Origin: Bdellovibrionales bacterium
GTDB lineage: Bacteria > Bdellovibrionota > Bdellovibrionia > Bdellovibrionales > UBA1609
Assembly (NCBI GenBank): GCA_965261545.1
Contig: CBDHDF010000011.1
Coordinates: forward strand, 832,001 to 896,000
Length of the DNA stretch: 64,000 bases
Direction: 5' to 3'
The position numbers and the translations under genes are program-made. Positions 37,556-50,335 of this stretch are shown piece after piece. Below the pieces are notes generated by a model. It was not told the DNA's origin and did not search any database. It saw only the letters and a program-made list of their open reading frames with translations. Position 1 is the stretch's first letter; each line of letters opens with the position of its first letter.

Positions 37556-38415
37556 TGTTAGGCGCCAATTAAAATTGGCCATTTTTAGAAGCCGTCGCCA
37601 ATGAAAAACGGCCAGTTGATGATGTACTGATTTAGTTATTCTTCGTTCAGAGTTTAGTCAAGTGTCTTTATTTTGCTCATCATTTAACTCGGACTATGCC
37701 ACAAGATTCTGAGGAATGATTTTCTGCCCACCACTTTTGGCATGACCCCAAATGCATCCTTCAGCCCTATGGCAGAGGTAAATGGAGTATTTTTCAGGAT
37801 TCCTTGGCGCAGCTAATGTCTAAAGCTCCGCGAGAGTGACGAGCAAATAGTACGGTAAAAGCCAGTTATCCATAAATTTATCCATGGCGACACTGCGGCT
37901 GTGACCCCGATGTCTAGCAACGCAGTGCTGCTGTGGATAAATTTTGTGGATAACTGGCGAGTTCCTTCCCCAAAAGTGGGGATCTCTAATGAACTTCTTT
38001 GGTTGAACTTTCCTCTTTGCTCTGTTTAGACTTGGCTTTTGCCGATTCGGTTCTCCAACTTTCTTTTCCTTCAATGTTGAGGGTTTCACAGTTGTGAATA
38101 ATTCGATCAACAGCAGCAGCGGTGGTAATAGGGTTAAGAAACACCTTATCCCATTCAGAGTAAGTTAAGTTTGTAGTGATCATGAGACTTTTCCTTTCAT
38201 ATCGCTGAGATATGAATTGAAAGAAAAGATCAGCACCCTCTGTGCAGGAAGCTGTATAGCCAAGTTCATCACAAGCAATAAGATCAAAACGGTCTAATTT
38301 CTTAAAAAGAGCATTCAATGAGAGTTCTTTCTTGCTTTCACGCATTGTTTCAATAAGTTCATGAGTGGTGACCCATAAACATCGATAGCCTTGTTCACAG
38401 AGTGAACGAACTGGG
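37556..38415 (-). pseudogene. istB: IS21-A copy 2: right end and 3' half of istB
   Basis: Reverse match to about 23435-24291; interrupted by the intron 3' end. Confidence 0.88.
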
Positions 38416-39159
38416 ATCGAGTGGAACGGGGGAATTGCACCCCCGAGCCCTCACAGATCCCCGCAGGACATTCTCATGTCACGGGGCTCCTATCCTAACA
38501 ACCTACGGAGGGGCCACTCGCCAATGGACAAACAGTTGTGGCCTTGCACGGGCAAAGCTCTTACACCATTTGTAGGCTCGACGGAAGCTTCCTCTCAAGC
38601 TTTTGAGGGTTCGGCGCGCCCATCTCATGAGTGCTCCGTTGAATCTGTGAAGAACAATGTACATTGCTGAAGGGGAGAACTTACCATAGTAATTGTACCA
38701 CCCTCTAAGAATGGGATTCCACTTCTTGGCAATATCTTCCATGGAGAGATGACTGCTCAAACGCACCTTCTCCTTGCGAATTTTATCATTCATTGCTTTC
38801 TTGGCCTTATTGCTTACGGCAGGAAGGTAATTTATAAAATCCTACCCCCTATAATTCCTTGCTGGCCTCGGCTTAAAGGTGTAACCGAGAAAATCGAAGT
38901 TGACTTTCTCTCCTTTCAACCTGCGTCTTCCTGACATTTGGCAATGAATAATGTGCGTCTTCTTTGGGTGAATTTCCAACCCCACTTCGCAGAGCCTTTC
39001 CTCCAATGCCCGTCTCATTTGGCTGGCTTCCTTCTTTGTGCGGCAGTGAATGACAGCGTCATCTGCGTACCGTACAAATGGGGATTCAGGATGATTCCTG
39101 GCCATCCATATATCGAAGGCATAGTGGAGAAATAGATTACTTAGCAGGGGTGAAGCAAC

Positions 39160-41099
39160 TCCCCGGACACAATAGACAACTTTTCCATTGAAATTTCCAT
39201 AAATATATATAATCATTCACTTTATGCAATTGGTCGTAAATATGCTCGCTATCGTTGGCATCCACCTGAGGATTCTTCCCATTTAGCTTCGAACCATAGT
39301 CAAAGGAATGATAATGGCCCACCAAACAAAACATCAAAATCCATGGACAGCTCAGTTAAAAAGTGTCTATCAAAGCGACCAAGCCACACGGGTTCAACAG
39401 ACATACGAAGTTGTTGTTCCAAAAATAAAGAAACAATTAAAGCAGAAAGTAAAACAACAGAAAATAATGGAGGTTAAAAATGGAAACATCAGTAGCTCTT
39501 TATTGTCGAGTGTCCTCAGATAAACAAGCTCAAGAGGGAACCATTGATTCACAGATTTCTAGTCTTCACGATTTCGCTAAGGAACACAGCTTTTGTGTAG
39601 AGGAGGATCTTATATTTACGGATAATGGTGTGAGTGGTGCCACCCTTGTTCGTCCTGCTTTAGACTCCCTTCGCGACAAAGCTTTTTCTGGGGAGGTTAC
39701 AAAGGTACTTGTGTTATGTCCAGACAGATTAGCTCGTAAATATGCCCATCAATTGATTCTAATTGAAGAATTTCAGAGGCTAGGTGTTGAAATTATTTTT
39801 TCTAATAGAGATATTACAAATTCACCCGAAGATCAGCTTTTGCTACAAATACAAGGAGTCATTTCAGAATATGAAAGAGAAAAAATTATGGAAAGAAGTC
39901 GAAGGGGTAAACTTCAAAAGGCTTCTAAGGGCTTTGTTAGCGTTTTATGTGGAGCTCCCTATGGTTATATATATATTCCGAAAGCAGACTCCGCTGACGC
40001 ACGATATGAGGTCCATCCAGAAGAGTCTAAAGTTGTTAAAGATGTTTTTCAAATGTATTGCCGAAACAAACTAAGTATTGGAGCAATTGCAAAGGAATTA
40101 AATATAAGGGGGGTGCCTACTAAAAAACAACAAGGTATTTGGGAGCGTTCAACTGTTTGGTGTATGCTTAAAAACCCCGCTTATTATGGACAAGCTGCTT
40201 TTAGAAAGACTATCCAGGTAGAAAGGTTGCGTCCAACCAAGTTAGCAAGAGACAATAATTTTTATCCAAAAAATCCTAAATCAAGCTCTTCCGATCGAAA
40301 TAAAAAGGATTGGATATATATTCCCGTTCCATCTATAATTTCTTCAAAAACTTTTCAAGATGCATCCAGTCAATTGGAAACTAACAAAAAACTTTCCCCT
40401 CGGAATAATAAAAAATATGAGTATTTGTTAAGTGGTCTTTTACGATGCAAAGAGTGTGGTTATTCGATCTATGGCAAACCCGCTTCTAATTCAAGGTATA
40501 AGCGTTGTTATTATCGCTGTATGGGACAAGATGGTCATAGATGGCCAGCTAAAGGTAGAGTTTGCTCATCTCATCCCGTAAGAGTTGAAGTTTTAGATGA
40601 CTTAGTTTGGGAACAAACAGTTAAATTACTTGAAAATCCTCAGGCAGTTATAGATGAGTATACAAATAGAATTCATGAGCAAAAAGGCCAACAACAATCA
40701 TTGGAAAAATTAATTGCAAAAAAGGCTCAGGAGATTCGTCAAATAACACATGAAAAGGAACGTCTCTTGGATCTTTATCAAAATGGAACTCTAAATCTAT
40801 CAGAAATAGAGTCACGATTAAAAAAAATAAGAGGCAAAATAAAGCAACTTGAAAATGAAAAGCAATCTTTAGAGTATGAGCAAAGGCAAGAAGGACAACA
40901 ATTACAGCTTGTAGATCAACTCCAAGAATTCCAAAAAAAAGTGAGTGCCAACTTAAAGGTATTGAGTTTTGAGCAAAAAAAGGAGATTGTAAGGCTACTG
41001 GTAAAGGAGGTTGAGGTGAACATTAAGACAAGTGAAATTGTGGTTCGACACGTTGTGCCAACATCCAAAAGTTTGCCATTGTGTCCGGGGAGTCACAAC
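39160..41099 (+). mobile_element. Minimal LSR element 1 (1940 bp)
   Basis: Shared CAACT at both junctions; perfect 16-bp inverted arms ACTCCCCGGACACAAT (39158-39173) and ATTGTGTCCGGGGAGT (41078-41093); removal restores RT codons QGSVASPL. Confidence 0.88.
39308..39523 (+). CDS. Small ORF overlapping the LSR1 start; possible accessory protein
   Basis: Position only. Confidence 0.35.
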   Translation: MIMAHQTKHQNPWTAQLKSVYQSDQATRVQQTYEVVVPKIKKQLKQKVKQQKIMEVKNGNISSSLLSSVLR

Positions 41100-41102
41100 T
41101 GA
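39480..41102 (+). CDS. Large serine recombinase (540 aa as integrated)
   Basis: YCRVSS, RPAL, DRLAR, PYGY, LKNPAY, CKECG...YYRC zinc ribbon and coiled coil; stop codon comes from target DNA. Confidence 0.93.
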   Translation: METSVALYCRVSSDKQAQEGTIDSQISSLHDFAKEHSFCVEEDLIFTDNGVSGATLVRPALDSLRDKAFSGEVTKVLVLCPDRLARKYAHQLILIEEFQRLGVEIIFSNRDITNSPEDQLLLQIQGVISEYEREKIMERSRRGKLQKASKGFVSVLCGAPYGYIYIPKADSADARYEVHPEESKVVKDVFQMYCRNKLSIGAIAKELNIRGVPTKKQQGIWERSTVWCMLKNPAYYGQAAFRKTIQVERLRPTKLARDNNFYPKNPKSSSSDRNKKDWIYIPVPSIISSKTFQDASSQLETNKKLSPRNNKKYEYLLSGLLRCKECGYSIYGKPASNSRYKRCYYRCMGQDGHRWPAKGRVCSSHPVRVEVLDDLVWEQTVKLLENPQAVIDEYTNRIHEQKGQQQSLEKLIAKKAQEIRQITHEKERLLDLYQNGTLNLSEIESRLKKIRGKIKQLENEKQSLEYEQRQEGQQLQLVDQLQEFQKKVSANLKVLSFEQKKEIVRLLVKEVEVNIKTSEIVVRHVVPTSKSLPLCPGSHN

Positions 41103-43305
41103 ACCCTGTGGCGTGCCCTTTGTGCGAGGTTTTTCCTTTCCGTTGTGACTCATGGGAGCTTCCAGCCACCTTTTGATGTATAAAAGAACCCATTTATCTT
41201 GGATGTGAAACTCCACCGCTTTTAAGAGCAAACTCCAGGAAATATTATCGAATAATCCTTTGATGTCAAATTCTAGGACCCATGAATATTTCCAGCATCT
41301 CTCTCGCACCTTTCCCACAGCATCGTGTGCTGACTTATTGGGACGGTATCCGTAAGAGTTTGGATGAAACAAAGGCTCTAGCTTTGGCTCAATAAATCGT
41401 CTGACCACCGTTTGCGCAACTCGGTCTCCCACTGTGGGAATTCCAAGCATTCGCACTCCGCCATCTTTCTTTGGTATGGGCACCGCTTTCACTGCGGGAG
41501 GGAAGTAACTTCCTGAAGCCATTTGATTCCAGATTTTATAGAGATTGTTTCTCAAATCCTGACCAAAATCATCCAAGCTGACTCCATCCACTCCACCAGC
41601 TCCACCGTTGTCCCGTACCTCCAAATAGGCGTACTTCACCATGTTCTTTGCAATGCCCTCAAAGGGCTTTGTTTTAGGTTGTGTAGACTCTATGCTTACC
41701 TCCTTTTTCAGTTTCTGCATCTAACCTACGTTTAGAATGTGCCCCCTTCGCCCTACACCTATTACAGTGTAGCTTTGCTACTACGAGACACTCTGCCCCA
41801 CCATCTGGCATCGGCATTTGAGTCTTGTGGATTACCGCCCACTCGAACTCCTACCTTAACATCCAGAGGATGGTTCCCAAGTTTCCTGAAAGAGCCTAAG
41901 CAAGATTCTTGTCACCTCAGTACCGGAGATCGCCCAACCAGTAAACAGGTTGCCGCTGGGCTTATCGTAGAGTGATACATTCTCTAGTTTCGACCTCAGT
42001 ATTAACTTTTCGATATGTCATCAGTGATTCTTTTGCAATCAACTCTCTTGCTCGTACCTGATGGTTTATACCACCTTTTCCTCACCCCCGATGGGCGGAT
42101 CAAAACCATCCATTTGTGGGCTAACAAAACCATCCATTTAAAAACTTAATATCTGACAAGGCGTATTATAGAATACTTCCTAGAAAACAACCTGGGAGGG
42201 AAGGATGAACGTCTTGAATAAACAAAAACAAGAAGAGATATTAACATTAATTATAGCAGGTCGCTCCTTTCGTGAAATAGCGAAAAGGCTACATGTCAGT
42301 CGATTTACAGTTTCAGAATATGCTAAAGCCCATAGTGTCATTGCGAAAAAAGGGCGCACAGGAGGTGTGGAGCCAAAGTCTCTACCTTTTTCAGGTCCCC
42401 CTGAAGCAGAACCATCATCTTCAGGGTCCCTTGAGGTTTGCTCTGTAGAGTCTTCAAGTGCTTCTGTAATCCAGATCCAAGAGCCCGATGAAGTTTCGGT
42501 TTCCTCTACAGAGGCCAATCAGCGGACACTCCTTGGGGAATCAGGCCTAACACCAGTAGAATCTCATTCAGCACCCCCTGTGGAGCCATGCTCAACTTCT
42601 TTGGCCGTGTCTGATTTGGTTAGCATGGGCCCCAGTGTTTGCCAAAAGCCCCCATCTCCAACCACCACCATGGTGGAAACGAATTTAGCTGCTCCTACAG
42701 AAACTGGATCCACCGACTGTGTAGCTCATTTAATCGAACGAGACAAGCCAGTTCCACCCTCACCTATGGATACAAAGCAGGCTTTTGCCAATGAAAAGCC
42801 ACCTACTCTTTCTTCTTCGGAATTAGGTTTTGTTGTCCCCATGGAAGTAACAAAACCCTTTGAGACAGCACCACCTGAATTGAAAAAGTCTCTTACTGAC
42901 CAGGCTTCCCCAAAGCACCCTCAACGATCTTCCTACCATCAGTCGGCTTGTGAGCCCCACAGGGTTTGGATTGAAAATCAGGCTTTGGATTTAGAGCGCA
43001 ATCGAATGGCCATCTACCAAGATTTGGTGGAGAAATTTGGTTTTTCTCACTCCTAACACAGCGTGAAAAAATTTGTAAGGAAGCTGAAGAAGAGTACCCC
43101 CAAACGCTATGATCGCTTGGATTTTCCCCCGGAGAGGAAGCCCAAGTGGATTATGGCCAAGGGGCTCTGACTATTCACCCCCGGACAGGCAAATATAGGC
43201 GGCCTCGCCTTTTTGTGATGACCCTCAAGTACTCTCGTGCCTCTTTTCGCAAGGTTGTTTGGAAGTCCAGCCAAGAGACGTGGAGCAGACTCCATGAGGA
43301 GGCTT

Positions 43306-43899: not shown

Positions 43900-46608
43900 G
43901 AGGCTTTTCATTATTTTTTGGGCTGCCCCTCAATATGTCGTCTTAGACAATCTCAAGGAAGGTGTTATTAAGCCAGATATCTATGAGCCAACGCTGAACG
44001 CCGTTTATGGCGCTGTACTGACTCACTACGGGGTCGTTGCTGACCCGGCAAGAGTTCGTGATCCTGATAGGAAAGGAACCGTTGAGCACGCCATTCACCA
44101 CACCCAAGACACAGCACTGAAGGGTCGTTCATTTAAAACCATTGAGGAGCAAAATGAGTGGCTCATGCACTGGGAGCACACTTGGGCTCGCCCTCGAGTC
44201 CATGGTTTGCACCAAGCGGGTCGTTTCTGAGATGTTTGAAGAAGAGAGCCCCTTTCTCAAAAAGCTCCCCCAAAAGAAATTTGATTTTTTTAAACAAGAG
44301 ATACGAACAGTTGCAGACGATGGGCTCATTCAAGTTGGAAACAGTTACTATTGCGCCTACCCTTCTGATCTAAAGAGCCAAGTCATTGTGCGTATTTATG
44401 ATAAAGACATAGAGATTATGGACCCTGCCACGATGAGTGTGATCCGCCGCCACCAAAAAGCCACTCTCCCGGGGAGTCTCTCTTTGCTAGACAAAGATCG
44501 TGTTTATAATCCATTGTTAGGCGCCAATTAAAATTGGCCATTTTTAGAAGCCGTCGCCAATGAAAAACGGCCAGTTGATGATGTACTGATTTAGTTATTC
44601 TTCGTTCAGAGTTTAGTCAAGTGTCTTTATTTTGCTCATCATTTAACTCGGACTATGCCACAAGATTCTGAGGAATGATTTTCTGCCCACCACTTTTGGC
44701 ATGACCCCAAATGCATCCTTCAGCCCTATGGCAGAGGTAAATGGAGTATTTTTCAGGATTCCTTGGCGCAGCTAATGTCTAAAGCTCCGCGAGAGTGACG
44801 AGCAAATAGTACGGTAAAAGCCAGTTATCCATAAATTTATCCATGGCGACACTGCGGCTGTGACCCCGATGTCTAGCAACGCAGTGCTGCTGTGGATAAA
44901 TTTTGTGGATAACTGGCGAGTTCCTTCCCCAAAAGTGGGGATCTCTAATGAACTTCTTTGGTTGAACTTTCCTCTTTGCTCTGTTTAGACTTGGCTTTTG
45001 CCGATTCGGTTCTCCAACTTTCTTTTCCTTCAATGTTGAGGGTTTCACAGTTGTGAATAATTCGATCAACAGCAGCAGCGGTGGTAATAGGGTTAAGAAA
45101 CACCTTATCCCATTCAGAGTAAGTTAAGTTTGTAGTGATCATGAGACTTTTCCTTTCATATCGCTGAGATATGAATTGAAAGAAAAGATCTGCCCCCTCT
45201 GTGCAGGAAGCTGTATAGCCAAGTTCATCACAAGCAATAAGATCAAAACGGTCTAATTTCTTAAAAAGAGCATTCAATGAGAGTTCTTTCTTGCTTTCAC
45301 GCATTGTTTCAATAAGTTCATGAGTGGTGACCCATAAACATCGATAGCCTTGTTCACAGAGTGAACGAACTAGGGACATGGCCAAATGACTTTTCCCCAT
45401 TCCAAAGCTTCCGTAAAACACAACATTACAGGCTTTTCTGACCCACTCTCCCTCTGCCATCCAATTAATTTGCTGAGCTGTCACTCCCGTTCTTTTCTGG
45501 AAGTTATAAGTTTGGAGTGATTTAAGTTGAGGAAGCTTGGCCCCCTTAAGCAATCTTTTCACTCTCTGGGAATGCTTGTCAGCAAGCTCATTTTGAACGA
45601 GTATACCTAAATAGTTCCTGTCCAGGGAAGAAAGTTAAGTAGTTTTAAGTATTTACATGCCTTCCCTTTAGATTTTATGCTTTAAAATGGAGTCCATCAA
45701 ACATAATCCGTGTAAATTCAGTTACTTACATAAAACGGAAAAATAAAATAAGTTCCCCCCCCCTCTCTTGACGAACCTTTCACAGCCCCTCCCTTTCAGT
45801 GACTTATGTGGCTATCAACTGGTTACTTGATATGAGAGGAAGAGTTGGATCAACCTGTGTTTCCACCGTGGTGATTTCAAACCTCCTTCAGGGAAATAAC
45901 ATTACGTTGCGCATCAACTTCAAAAAATACTTGACGTGTTTTTTCAGAGAAATAATTTTTGATATTTTATTCTTCATTTATTTTTTATGTAGGTTTTAGG
46001 AGGCGTGGGAACCTCTCTATGAGGTAGAATTCTTATCCATGTTCTCCGAGAACCTCTCTGATTTTTTTCTTCTTAAAAGACATCCTTGCTCACTTTTTTC
46101 CCTCAAAAAAACGTATGTTAATATAAAAATTAAAGAGAAACTTTCACCAAAGGGGGGACTATGCGCCATTTGAAGAAGACACAGTTGGGACTCTTTTCCC
46201 AATATCCTAACCACCAACTCAGTACAGAATTGCAGCAAATTAATAACATCATTGATCGCCATCCAGAGTTTGCCCATATGGTTCATGAAGACCTTGTTAA
46301 AGAAAAGAAAGATTCTGGTGATATTGGTATGACATCGGAGCAAGTTCTCAAGGTGGCTATTCTTAAATCCATAAGAGGTCTTTCCTATCGTGCGTTAGCC
46401 TTTAATCTTGTCGATTCAGTATCCACCAGAGCTTTTCTGGGCCTTGAATTGGAAGAAAATTACGCTCACTCCACCTTACAGGACTTGATTGTTCAAATAA
46501 GTGAAGAAACTTGGGGAATTATTAGCGCCTCTTTAGTTTCAGATGCAAGAGATCAAAAGATTGAGCCGTGTAAGAAAATGAGATTGGACAGTACAGTGAC
46601 GAAATCAA

Positions 46609-46971
46609 ACGAGTCCATTACTTAATACCCCCGTCAACGACAGAGGTTTTAGAGAGCTAAGGGTCACGGACCCCTCCCATCCCCTTTATAGGAAGTCATT
46701 CAAGGTGATTTCCATACCTAAAAATCAGAAAAAATCTACTTTTGCTTTTGTTCAATACAAGAACCACATGACGCTACGCATACCATTGGCTTCTACCAAT
46801 CTGAACCCCAATCTCTACGATAGGCAGGCCCCAAGCAAACTTGGTATAGTTGCAATTCAGGAGCTAATTTCACTGACTCAACAACTGGAAGAGCAACTAT
46901 GTCAATTACACCAAAAGATGTCTGGCCAAGACTGCCAAAAGAAATTCAAAAGCAAGTCATCAAAGACTTAA
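46609..46971 (+). CDS. Accessory ORF whose start is displaced in the integrated state (VTDPSHPL motif, recalled as DUF5372/Y4bD-like)
   Basis: Frame open from the left junction; in-frame ATG and purine-rich RBS lie at the right end (49041-49056). Confidence 0.6.
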   Translation, partial: TSPLLNTPVNDRGFRELRVTDPSHPLYRKSFKVISIPKNQKKSTFAFVQYKNHMTLRIPLASTNLNPNLYDRQAPSKLGIVAIQELISLTQQLEEQLCQLHQKMSGQDCQKKFKSKSSKT

Positions 46972-47135
46972 CTTTAGCCATTGAGGAGATTATATATGAA
47001 AACATCGGAATTGATTACACCTATTCACTTAAAGAGAAAAGCCATAATATACATCAGACAGTCGACCCCTCAGCAAGCCATCAAAAACAAAGAAAGTCTC
47101 GACCTTCAATACTCACTCAGGCAAAGAGCTACTGA
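46899..47135 (+). CDS. Small ORF overlapping the LSR2 start; possible accessory protein
   Basis: Coupled position between the upstream ORF and the LSR. Confidence 0.4.
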   Translation: MSITPKDVWPRLPKEIQKQVIKDLTLAIEEIIYENIGIDYTYSLKEKSHNIHQTVDPSASHQKQRKSRPSILTQAKSY

Positions 47136-49041
47136 ATTAGGTTGGCAAGAAGATAGTATTGAAATTGTCGATGATGATTTGGGGATCACAGGAAGTAGTA
47201 TACAGTTTAGAGAAGGCTTCAAGAATATCCTTGCAGAAGTGACCTTGGAAAAAATTGGTATTATTCTATCGTACGATGTCACTCGTCTATCTAGAAACTG
47301 TACGGACTGGTACCAATTACTTGATCTGTGTGCTTTTAAGAATTGCCTCATTGCTGATAGAGAGTCTATTTATAACCCTTCTAATGTTAATGGAAGAATG
47401 TTACTCGGGTTTAAAGGTCAACTCTCAGAAATGGAATTATTTACGATACGCAATAGATTAACAGCAGGTCTTCTCAACAAAGCCAAGCGAGGAGATTTAG
47501 CTCTTAAATTACCAGTTGGTTTTATTCGAACAGAACAAGGTAAAGTGCTAAAAGATCCAAATAAAGATTTACAAGATCGCATAAATTTAGTATTTACTAT
47601 ATTCTTAAAACTGAAATCAGCCGGTAAGGTGTCGCGATTTTTTAACGATAACAACCTCTTACTTCCAAGAGTTGATTTTGTAAAAAGTATTCATTGGAAA
47701 AAAACATCCAAGGCAGCCATACTTTCTATTTTGAAGAATCCAGCTTATAGCGGAACTTTTGTATATGGCAAAGCTGAATACCGTAGAAAAGACTTAGCTG
47801 GAAAACTTAAGCGTACAAAGCTTCCACTTAATGAATGGAAAATTGTTGTGAAAGATAAATATCCTAAATATATCGATTGGAATACATTCTTAAAGATACA
47901 AGAAATTCTAAAAGACAACTACACTGAATATACTCGTAATAAAACAAGAGGCATACCTCGCCCTGGTAAGGCCCTCTTACATGGGATAGTCTATTGTGGA
48001 GAATGTGGCCACAAAATGTCAGTGCAGTATAAAACAGCAACTCGATACTTATGCAACTATCTACGCCAACAACATCGGGAACCTACTTGCCAATTCATTC
48101 CTACAGATCCAATCGATGATTATGTAGTAAACGCTTTTTTTAAGGTTCTTTCCCCTGTCGAGCTAGACTTGTATGCCAAGGCTTTAGAAAATAAGTCAAA
48201 AATTGACCAAGAGGTTTACAAATCACACATTCAGCAAATTCAGCGTTTAAGGTATGAAGCTCAACTGGTAGAAAAGAGGTATCGCAAAGTAGACCCTGAG
48301 AATAGACTTGTTGCAGATGAATTAGAAACACAATGGGAAGAGGCTTTAGTAATACTTAAAAAAGCCGAAGATCACCTAGAGAGGGTTAAGAATGAACAGC
48401 GTATTCCAACTGTGATCTCTCAAAAAATGAAAAGAGAATTTTCAGATTTGAATCAAAAACTACCTTCGCTATGGGAGGATAAGATATTGACCAAAGACAT
48501 GAAAAAGAAAATTCTTAGAACATTGGTTGAAAAGGTTGTCATTCACAGAAAGAAAAGAGATATGGTTGCACTGAGAATTGTTTGGATTGGAGGAGATACA
48601 ACAGAAGCTAGCATTCCAATCAAAGTTGGATCTTTTGATGAACTGTCATCTTCTGAAACGATAAAGAAAATAATTGCGCATCAGGTCAAGCTTGGGGTGT
48701 CTGATGAAGATATTGCCAAACTATTGACCCAAAAAGGATTCAGATCACCAATGGATACCACTTTTCTCAGAAATACTGTGAAGTCCTATAGACTAAACAA
48801 TAAAATCTATCGGAATCGAAAGCACTCTTTTCCGACCAAAGTCGAGGGAAGCCTCACAACATCTCAAATTGCAGCACTTATTGATGTTAAAGTTCATTGG
48901 ATTTATCACCATATTAAACAAGGGAGGATCATTGTCAAAAAACACGAGAAAACAAAGGCTTATCTCTTTCCAGATAAGAAAAAAACCATATCTGACTTTA
49001 AAAAACTTAAGTCCGGATCAATTAAAAAGCTACGTTACTAA
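46996..49041 (+). CDS. Large serine recombinase (about 681 aa) with C-terminal HTH-like extension
   Basis: YIRQST, DDDLG, VTRLSRN, LPVGF, ILKNPAY and CGECG...YLC motifs; RBS GAGGAG at 46983. Confidence 0.92.
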   Translation: MKTSELITPIHLKRKAIIYIRQSTPQQAIKNKESLDLQYSLRQRATELGWQEDSIEIVDDDLGITGSSIQFREGFKNILAEVTLEKIGIILSYDVTRLSRNCTDWYQLLDLCAFKNCLIADRESIYNPSNVNGRMLLGFKGQLSEMELFTIRNRLTAGLLNKAKRGDLALKLPVGFIRTEQGKVLKDPNKDLQDRINLVFTIFLKLKSAGKVSRFFNDNNLLLPRVDFVKSIHWKKTSKAAILSILKNPAYSGTFVYGKAEYRRKDLAGKLKRTKLPLNEWKIVVKDKYPKYIDWNTFLKIQEILKDNYTEYTRNKTRGIPRPGKALLHGIVYCGECGHKMSVQYKTATRYLCNYLRQQHREPTCQFIPTDPIDDYVVNAFFKVLSPVELDLYAKALENKSKIDQEVYKSHIQQIQRLRYEAQLVEKRYRKVDPENRLVADELETQWEEALVILKKAEDHLERVKNEQRIPTVISQKMKREFSDLNQKLPSLWEDKILTKDMKKKILRTLVEKVVIHRKKRDMVALRIVWIGGDTTEASIPIKVGSFDELSSSETIKKIIAHQVKLGVSDEDIAKLLTQKGFRSPMDTTFLRNTVKSYRLNNKIYRNRKHSFPTKVEGSLTTSQIAALIDVKVHWIYHHIKQGRIIVKKHEKTKAYLFPDKKKTISDFKKLKSGSIKKLRY

Positions 49042-50335
49042 GGGGGTATCAACATGAGTGATCAAATATTCATCATCCAACGGATGCATCGCTTTTATAT
49101 GACTGCATAAGAGTTACAGAAAGAGAATTTAAAAAAGTTCGTAAAAATGTCATGAAAGATTTTTGGCGACTTATTTCAAGAGAAGATCTTAAGAGAGCAA
49201 AAACCTTGCTTTACAAAATTAATAATTCCAAAAATGATGCGGAAAGACTACCTTGCTATAAGGAGCTTTTAAAAATCGCTACCAAATTGAACAAAGGATT
49301 ACCTGATACCATCAGAAAGATAAAAAAAGAACAAAAATGTGTGAAGATGAATGCTTTGAAAAAGAGTCTAAAACAGTTAGAAAATGTTGCCTTCTACCTG
49401 GAAAAAATCATCTTTCAAACTCAAAAAAGAGTTATTGAGGGGAAAAAAGTATCTTCTGAAAAAAAGGTCCTATCCATCTTTGAACCGCATACAGACATTA
49501 TTGTAAAGGGGCAAAGAGAAGTCGAGTTTGGGCATAAAATCTTTCTGACCTCAGGGCAAAGCAACATGATTTTAGATTGTCAGATCCCTGATGGCAACCC
49601 CGCAGACTCTGATATGTTTTTAAAAGTTATGAATTCAGTGACACAAACCTATGGGGCTTGCCCTGTAAAAGTAAGTGCAGATGGTGGGTTTGCTTCAAAA
49701 GAAAATCTTGAAGAGGCCAAAGAGATGGGGGCTAAAGATGTTTGCTTCCCAGAAAAAAAAGGAATGAAAATATTAAAGATGGTTAAAAGTGCTTGGGTCT
49801 TTAAAAATCTTCTCAATTGGAGAGCCGGAATAGAGGCTGTTATTTCATTCCTTAAGAGATGTTTTGGTATGAGAGTTGCTTACTGGAAAGGGCATGATGG
49901 TTTTAAGAGGTATGTAAAGAATGCCGTTTGTGCCTATAATTTTGTTGTCTTGGCAAGACATGAATTATCAACTGTCACCTAAATTTATCCATTAGGAATA
50001 ACAGCAATGGACCAGGTCGAAGGTGCTAAAATCTTCCAAAGGTAGGGGTGCGTCTTCAAATCGAAAAAACTAGGGCGCAAGTCGCTTAAAGACCTTTTTC
50101 CCCTTAATCTGTAGAGTTTGTGTGGCAAATCTCCAACTCTCACTCCCCCATTGAGGCATTGGGAGGCTCAATGGGGAGTGTCAGAGAACAAAAAATGGGC
50201 CTTTCTGGACAGAAACTAAATACTGTTCATACGTCTTTTTTGTTTTTTCGGCAACTCTAGCCGTTGCAACATATTCATCCGCCATCGCTGGAAGTCGGAG
50301 TTTTTTAAGAGAACCTATAAGTTCTTCGTGATTCA

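Follow-up and report, generated by a model that had tools for sequence, protein, structure and literature searches.

An element inside a group II intron

A 1,940-bp mobile element built around a large serine recombinase (LSR) gene lies in a 64,000-nucleotide stretch of a Bdellovibrionales bacterium genome (GCA_965261545.1, contig CBDHDF010000011.1, positions 832,001 to 896,000), which we call the window and whose coordinates are used throughout. The element splits a minus-strand group II intron reverse transcriptase (RT) gene at the motif GTPQG, and on the excised circle the recombinase reading frame would run on across the joined ends into an extension that we call the tail. The locus consists of the following features.

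39157..41096, plus strand: entire element, 1,940 bp with the 2-bp core counted once, delimited by the empty allele in its own genome, contig joints that skip 1,940 bases, and the genome copies
39157..39184, plus strand: left attachment-site (att) arm (P' half-site), which also encodes tail codons 1-8 and forms an inverted repeat with 41067-41093
39160..39258, plus strand: conserved circle-only tail, codons 1-33, under purifying selection in the tail frame only, with a motif found in relatives and modeled on the last recombinase strand
39259..39477, plus strand: remainder of the open tail frame, a variable linker and then the -1 shadow of orfA, with its TAA two bases before the recombinase ATG
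39314..39523 (alternative ATG at 39308), plus strand: orfA, 69 aa, overlapping the recombinase start; candidate directionality factor
39480..41102, plus strand: LSR, 540 aa in the window's integrated copy, with a stop codon from the target
41067..41096, plus strand: right att arm (P half-site) with the 2-bp core at 41095-41096, encoding the recombinase's last own residues (PLCPGS)
41097..41720, minus strand: N-terminal half of the split RT gene, ending GTPQG-S (RVT_1 positions 1-123; as a half, its TIGR04416 match is below the cut-off)
38842..39156, minus strand: C-terminal half of the RT gene (ASPLLSN...YADD; RVT_1 positions 125-205)
38503-38793, minus strand: maturase X domain, in a frame other than that of the RT C-terminal half (GIIM match)
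38416..38491, minus strand: group II intron domain V/VI RNA (Rfam RF00029, 43.6 bits against a gathering threshold of 40)

The element's enzyme is a large serine recombinase. Its N-terminal catalytic domain matches Pfam Resolvase (PF00239) at 110.9 bits against a cut-off of 23.3, Y8 and S12 of the Y-x-R-V-S motif are invariant in 47 sequences, the Recombinase (PF07508) and zinc ribbon (PF13408) families match above their cut-offs, and the model of the protein contains an inserted coiled coil (helices 387-434 and 440-488). Foldseek finds solved serine integrases (best E 4e-19, identity 15-19%). DUF4368 is not among the four Pfam families matched at E 0.1, and the best NCBIfam matches, to SCCmec Ccr, score 147 and 106 bits against a cut-off of 900.

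For comparison across the family we inspected 84 loci for a left end: 80 metagenomic loci, 2 from other genomes, and the 2 variants of the element in its own genome. A left end was recognizable in 63 of these, representing 50 distinct sequences; the 21 loci dropped comprise 13 with about 315 bases or fewer upstream and 8 that are divergent, and in three of the latter (L103, L107, and L111; 21-residue form) a tail was seen on inspection.

The recombinase open reading frame (ORF) closes with the codons CAC AAC TGA, and the initial annotation of this sequence was right that the gene has no stop of its own and borrows the TGA from its target, since an empty copy of the window's intron elsewhere in the genome (G000:C11:345427) carries that TGA. 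The element ends are inverted repeats, perfect over 16 bp and matching at 24 of 27 positions over a longer stretch. The crossover had been placed at a CAACT shared by both ends, but the layout at junctions across the family is a 15-bp arm, a 2-bp core, and a 15-bp arm, and the five-base overlap is partly coincidence; in the window the left core (39155-39156) is GC, and both the right core and the empty allele read AC. This layout places recombination at a 2-bp core between inverted half-sites, as in large serine recombinases. The two cores are the same in 32/49 loci and unlike in 17/49. Because the junction codon that holds the core starts with A, C, or G in 49/49 loci, a variable core cannot create a stop, and because the left and right cores differ in the window, the two spacer bases of the circle may vary, with one residue changed and the frame unaffected.

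The element was also first described as a minimal single-gene unit lacking a candidate directionality factor. The overlapping ORF at 39314-39523 is nonetheless a conserved gene, orfA, found by motif in 48 of the 50 left ends and by eye in the other two, with invariant M, W, Y, and R residues in 28 aligned members. The element thus has two genes, orfA and the LSR, between the arms, and contains no cargo or conjugation genes, repressor, or phage genes. OrfA has no Pfam, NCBIfam, or confident Atlas match, and its single-chain model has a predicted template modeling score (pTM) of 0.29; its position and conservation make it a candidate directionality factor.

The reading frame across the joined ends

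On the 1,940-bp circle, the frame at 39160-39474 is open for 105 codons up to the TAA at 39475-39477, and this run-on, the circle length, and the 16-bp repeat all agree with the first measurements made on the sequence. At local base composition the chance of 105 open codons is 7.8e-4, and a frame of that length was reached by 120 of 200,000 mononucleotide shuffles and 129 of 50,000 dinucleotide shuffles.

Evidence that the beginning of this frame is read as protein comes from tail codons 9-33, which lie beyond the 27-bp repeat and upstream of orfA. Over all pairs of the 50 left ends, the proportion of synonymous differences (pS) in these codons is 0.70 and that of nonsynonymous differences (pN) 0.29, and third positions vary most (0.56 versus 0.35 and 0.24; 0 of 100,000 permutations were as extreme). 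Codons 9-32 are free of stops in all 50 left ends, whereas each of the other five frames has stops in 24-49 of them. In 25 phylogenetically independent pairs taken from the recombinase tree, the tail has a pN/pS of 0.35 (Fisher p 5e-21), compared with 0.21, 0.27, and 0.23 in three regions of the recombinase and 0.61-1.52 in the other frames, the value of 0.61 belonging to the antisense frame that shares third positions. The conserved tail residues G25, R26, S9, L16, and A29 use four to six synonymous codons. Codons 1-33 encode an amphipathic beta-strand (residues 7-16) and then an H-x-x-Y-x-x-G-R-x-[YF]-A-x-Y-x-W segment. Among plasmid relatives with 36-42% identity, of which 11 of 47 records were fetched, 9 of the 11 loci keep both the register and an N-x-x-x-[ND]-F-x-F-x-x-x-[ILV]-like motif; distant relatives have a related strand motif in the first 20 residues of tails whose lengths run from 29 to more than 110, and two planctomycete loci have another short tail, alike between the two. 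The tail has no match in Pfam, NCBIfam, or Atlas. It is very probably a real, functional part of the circle enzyme, and the proposal of the initial annotation that integration switches the recombinase isoform is borne out by a read-through frame that is open and conserved as protein across the family.

A neutral account, in which the open frame arose by chance or follows from orfA or from a signal in the DNA or RNA, is hardly credible as a whole, and for codons 9-33 these comparisons largely refute it: only one frame shows the synonymous excess, in a segment that lies past the repeat and before orfA, the RNA fold is not unusual (z 0.48), and promoter-like matches are at chance level (2 versus 1.1 +/- 1.0). 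A hint of some DNA-level constraint comes from tail His19 (39214-39216), which is encoded by CAT in 49/49 left ends having His and coincides with a weak -10-like match, an invariance that suggests an overlapping DNA signal. The neutral account does hold for the amino-acid sequence of the tail's second half. The overlapping ORF, once considered as an explanation of the entire open frame, cannot explain tail codons 1-33 because these lie upstream of it, but it does explain the sequence of the second half: over 26 overlap codons in 18 pairs, pN/pS is 0.37 in the orfA frame and 1.45 in the tail frame. Protein-level selection on the tail is thus limited to about the first 33 residues, and the second half reads as a shadow of the conserved small gene orfA. 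The 105-aa tail as a whole, which had been regarded as the functional unit, is not conserved in that form, tail lengths varying from 32 to 106 in the 50 left ends (at least 102 in 27 of them). The openness of the second half exceeds what the shadow predicts, with the tail frame open across orfA in 29/46 left ends versus 3.9 expected from synonymous recoding of orfA, a count that ignores kinship, and the tail stop falls within -4 to +3 bases of a recombinase start codon in 30/50, including 22 with an ATGA or GTGA overlap. We take translation to be coupled around the circle in one large clade and such coupling to be dispensable in others.

The tail frame has no conserved start codon: codon 5 is ATA in 41 left ends, ATT in 7, and ATG in 2, and what stands at that codon is dictated by the symmetry of the arms. 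Target genes cannot be a regular source of its translation because insertions lie in either orientation and, in all 22 sense insertions, the RT is read in a frame other than that of the tail. The only frame always in register with the tail is that of the recombinase, across the joined ends. A free peptide, started at codon 5 (ATA, ATT, or ATG) or read in from a target gene and acting in trans whether the element is excised or not, would fit those relatives in which codon 5 is ATG and the frame is annotated as a small protein beginning MDTFS (4/36 matches), and would also fit a complex, described below, that was modeled as two chains. We consider it very improbable, since the two left ends with ATG at codon 5 are accounted for by symmetry with the right arm, no ribosome-binding site lies within 14 bases upstream of that codon, distant relatives have K, V, or G-type residues there, insertions occur in both orientations with an RT frame that never matches, and the loci examined keep the tail in register with the end of the LSR. 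Database proteins that include the tail are either short calls or accidental fusions with unrelated frames upstream. Gene callers place the tail at the C-terminus of chance target-ORF fusions (P0121-P0125 and P0126-P0160, including two transposases and one intron RT), which could mislead family searches. The recombinase itself, when integrated, receives target-coded tails of 2 to 151 aa across 49 loci; at six right ends in its own genome these have 2, 2, 2, 33, 6, and at least 66 residues.

Tail docking and the direction of recombination

The recombinase model has a mean predicted local distance difference test score (pLDDT) of 75.5 and ends in strands 508-514 and 519-524. When recombinase residues 300-540 and tail residues 1-35 were modeled as two chains alongside 3 controls, the complex scored 0.62 and the best control 0.01; the mark for this score is reached by 116/157 solved complexes and 2/215 mismatched pairs, counts that apply only roughly when own alignments are used. 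At least 67% of contacts recur between runs, and partner pLDDT is at least 54. In the model, tail residues 11-16 lie antiparallel to recombinase residues 518-524 (pairs 524-11, 521-13, and 519-15/16), as expected for a chain continuing from the C-terminus, and the tail contacts residues 367-394, the helices leading into the coiled coil. The model supports docking of the tail on the recombinase's last strand beside the base of the coiled coil. According to the available text of PMC12286644, verified recombination directionality factors (RDFs) are predicted at the junction between the second DNA-binding domain (DBD2) and the coiled coil, most of them extend the DBD2 sheet by a beta-strand, and additional C-terminal strands might obstruct the RDF site, a point posed there as an open question.

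Our best explanation has its basis in three features read from the sequence, which show a recombinase gene without its own stop, an in-frame junction, and a tail selected as protein. The attP site lies inside the last codons of the LSR gene, and the LSR would cut the element out and paste it in. In the integrated state, the enzyme would lack its last beta-strand and end in a target-coded tail that is random because targets and orientation vary. In the excised circle or a head-to-tail dimer, translation would cross the junction and add a strand-and-helix piece of about 33 residues, which would fold back on the last strand of DBD2 beside the coiled-coil base and may occupy the surface used by directionality factors. 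The tailed circle enzyme could then not bind OrfA and would only integrate, and the tail-less enzyme with OrfA would excise. By running on to the LSR start, the frame would keep translation coupled around the circle and might mask the start of orfA. We judge it on balance probable that the tailed circle enzyme plugs its own site and integrates while the tail-less integrated enzyme binds OrfA and excises. To the broader statement, that a widespread intron-parasitic family sets recombination direction by gene assembly, excision splicing on a strand that plugs the RDF site to give an integration-only enzyme and integration unplugging it so that OrfA drives excision, we would give roughly even chances.

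The main rival is a switch of activity or stability like that of phage Mx8, whose integrase activity is reportedly lowered on integration. The tail would complete the DNA-binding domain, making the circle form fully active and stable and the integrated form weak, which would limit excision, and OrfA would be a regulator or an ordinary RDF for either form. Tail selection and docking fit such a switch equally, the tail-less model is poorly defined over its final 20 residues (pLDDT 63 and 46 in the two closing blocks), and integration changes the C-terminus of the Mx8 integrase in the sources as far as available; yet integrated copies must excise with the tail-less enzyme, several targets have been reached in the genome, and the coiled-coil base, on which direction depends, is part of the docking site. 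We rate it as rather unlikely, though a serious contender. A third account makes the tail a built-in RDF mimic, so that circle-made enzyme would favor excision and mobilize other copies. Strand addition at the DBD2-coiled-coil junction is predicted RDF behavior and C-terminal RDF fusions are excisive (PMC12286644, available text), but a circle enzyme that favored excision would keep its own circle from re-inserting, and a separate conserved small gene is already present; such a mimic is improbable.

Several observations weigh against the reading in which the tail plugs the RDF site of the circle enzyme. A profile comparison detects no likeness between the tail and OrfA (probability 0.9%). The complex score may owe to likeness to solved integrase-RDF complexes, and the modeled complex cannot distinguish a blocker from a mimic. 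One of the 50 left ends has a stop at tail codon 33, another (L112) has lost the second half of the tail motif, and 23/50 tails are shorter than 100 codons, so the frame is not coupled to the LSR start in every member. No circle junction or LSR-plus-tail protein was found in the element's own genome, the loci, or 120 homologues. A search for longer proteins among 7,997 scored gave 5 matches, all of them target-ORF fusions, and one of 1.84 billion representatives gave 36 matches without an LSR fusion, although clustering at 50% could hide a fused form. A pattern search of viral contigs gave 3 matches, none a junction; ten of 12 pattern matches in viral contigs and loci were inspected, eight being left ends beside a target half-site and two unrelated (minus-strand matches in L061 and L108 were left out). 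Contigs of four runs likewise show only the empty-site joint and no circle junction, and contigs drop rare forms.

An attP site inside the integrase gene is known for the tyrosine recombinases of Mx8 and SSV (PMC4383910, available text). There, as here, the gene crosses attP and integration alters or removes the C-terminus. Those enzymes are tyrosine recombinases of viruses with tRNA targets, whereas this is a serine recombinase of a 1.9-kb non-viral element with an intron RT target, and the piece lost here is a short strand modeled on the directionality surface, with a random integrated tail in its place. The element works like the split integrases of Mx8 and SSV but is not a member of that group. 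The Mx8 integrase is also a closer precedent than the one first named, mycobacteriophage integration-dependent immunity, which shares an attP inside a gene and an altered C-terminus. In that immunity the gene is a repressor and the circle-form tail a degradation tag, while here the gene is the recombinase and the tail looks structural. In systems of the SPbeta, phiC31, Bxb1, and A118 type, which have separate RDFs, one integrase isoform serves both directions; here there are two, depending on the state of the element. Tn4451/Tn4453 (TnpX) and Tn5397 (TndX) transpose by an LSR via a circle, with a 2-bp core and several targets, and are controlled by a promoter formed at the junction, not by a coding junction. 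The present element differs from them in lacking a DUF4368 match, cargo, and conjugation genes; DUF4368 is found in 63% of the TndX clade (PMC10083194, available text). With SPbeta, phiC31, Bxb1, and A118/LI it shares domain order, the catalytic serine motif, a 2-bp core between inverted arms, and a small neighboring gene as RDF candidate (PMC12286644, available text). To SCCmec CcrA/B/C, its best NCBIfam matches, it is linked by the possibility that extra C-terminal strands block the RDF site (PMC12286644, available text); the matches are far below the cut-off, and the Ccr strands are permanent whereas the strand here is conditional on excision.

Neither the element family nor a circle-only tail is described in the literature searched, which did not cover subscription papers and supplements (the LSR tables of PMC10083194 may include members). 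For the terms searched, neither intron RT targets nor tails of this kind come up in the available text of PMC10083194 and PMC12884075; PMC9203015, in its available part, concerns phage WO. The tests made here concern frame-specific selection on the tail, the distinction between the tail and the shadow of orfA, and tail docking by modeling. The choice of direction by serine recombinases is under active study, and for it this family provides naturally paired isoforms, one with and one without a C-terminal strand. Recombinases mined from integrated copies carry a wrong annotated C-terminus, namely a random target-coded tail, so that screens for genome-engineering tools would test an incomplete enzyme. 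By disabling group II introns at a near-universal RT motif, the family also stands in a hyperparasite relationship to them.

Family, target introns, and neighboring sequences

Of 7,999 scored proteins, 3,850 are related to the recombinase. Most of the 120 listed homologues, judged by eye, close with a PL[CR]x[GR]S motif, after which come unrelated tails. Insertion is at the GTPQG / SPLL motif of an intron RT in 45/63 loci (46 scored, the match in L082 being spurious) and occurs in both orientations. DNA encoding the GTPQGG motif resembles the element's own right arm (left junctions of L047, L098, L099, L110, L113, and L200), a likeness that may explain target choice. The plasmid relatives include insertions in annotated intron RT or maturase genes; among the 11 fetched loci, a clear repeat and duplicated core are found in L188, L192, L193, L194, and L196, while L190 lacks a clear repeat and L198 seems to carry a frameshift close to the end of the LSR. 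With strict E-value limits, the element was not found in 100 genomes of its family or 300 of its phylum.

Some distant relatives carry a third gene, encoding a helix-turn-helix (HTH) and a ribbon-helix-helix, between the tail frame and orfA (L188:400-654, L189:322-651, L195:318-665, and L197:318-665), and their tails are short (about 30 residues). Identity of the tail with the annotated ribbon-helix-helix protein of distant relatives was considered and ruled out, since a separate gene inside those elements encodes that protein. Prophage-like recombinases at the ends of viral contigs (L115-L117, 37% identity) have an orfA-like ORF upstream and a similar C-terminal motif; a left arm was not found near them.

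The genome of the window contains 7 uninterrupted, 2 interrupted, and 2 partial copies of the element, which fall into two variants that are 97% alike. The second variant's left end is found in six copies of a different intron RT gene, four more copies of that gene are empty, and one element end pair is located in a non-intron gene. The contig joint that skips 1,940 bases, present in 3/4 runs of one sample, is explained by the empty intron copy in the genome. Two copies (G000 C7:146913-151829 and C10:793053-794992) have swapped flanks, with an intron target and a non-intron gene split between them and one extra base at the intron target, which points to either recombination between copies or misassembly. 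Mismatched or head-to-head intron halves also occur in the metagenomic loci L045, L060, L068, L074, and L090.

In the window, the intron ORF shifts frame between the RT C-terminal half and the maturase domain (38793-38842, minus strand), so this intron copy is damaged besides the insertion. Identical 3' parts of one gene, which we take to encode an IstB-like ATPase, lie at 37820-38345 and 44779-45562 (minus strand), the first abutting the 3' end of the group II intron, and the intron, an insertion sequence (IS), and the LSR element appear nested. A second, unrelated LSR at 46705-49041 (plus strand; 686 aa) has a C-terminal HTH-like match and its own stop; it is preceded by two small ORFs, and the insertion lies between the halves of a transposase-like gene at 46161-46625 and 49152-49982.

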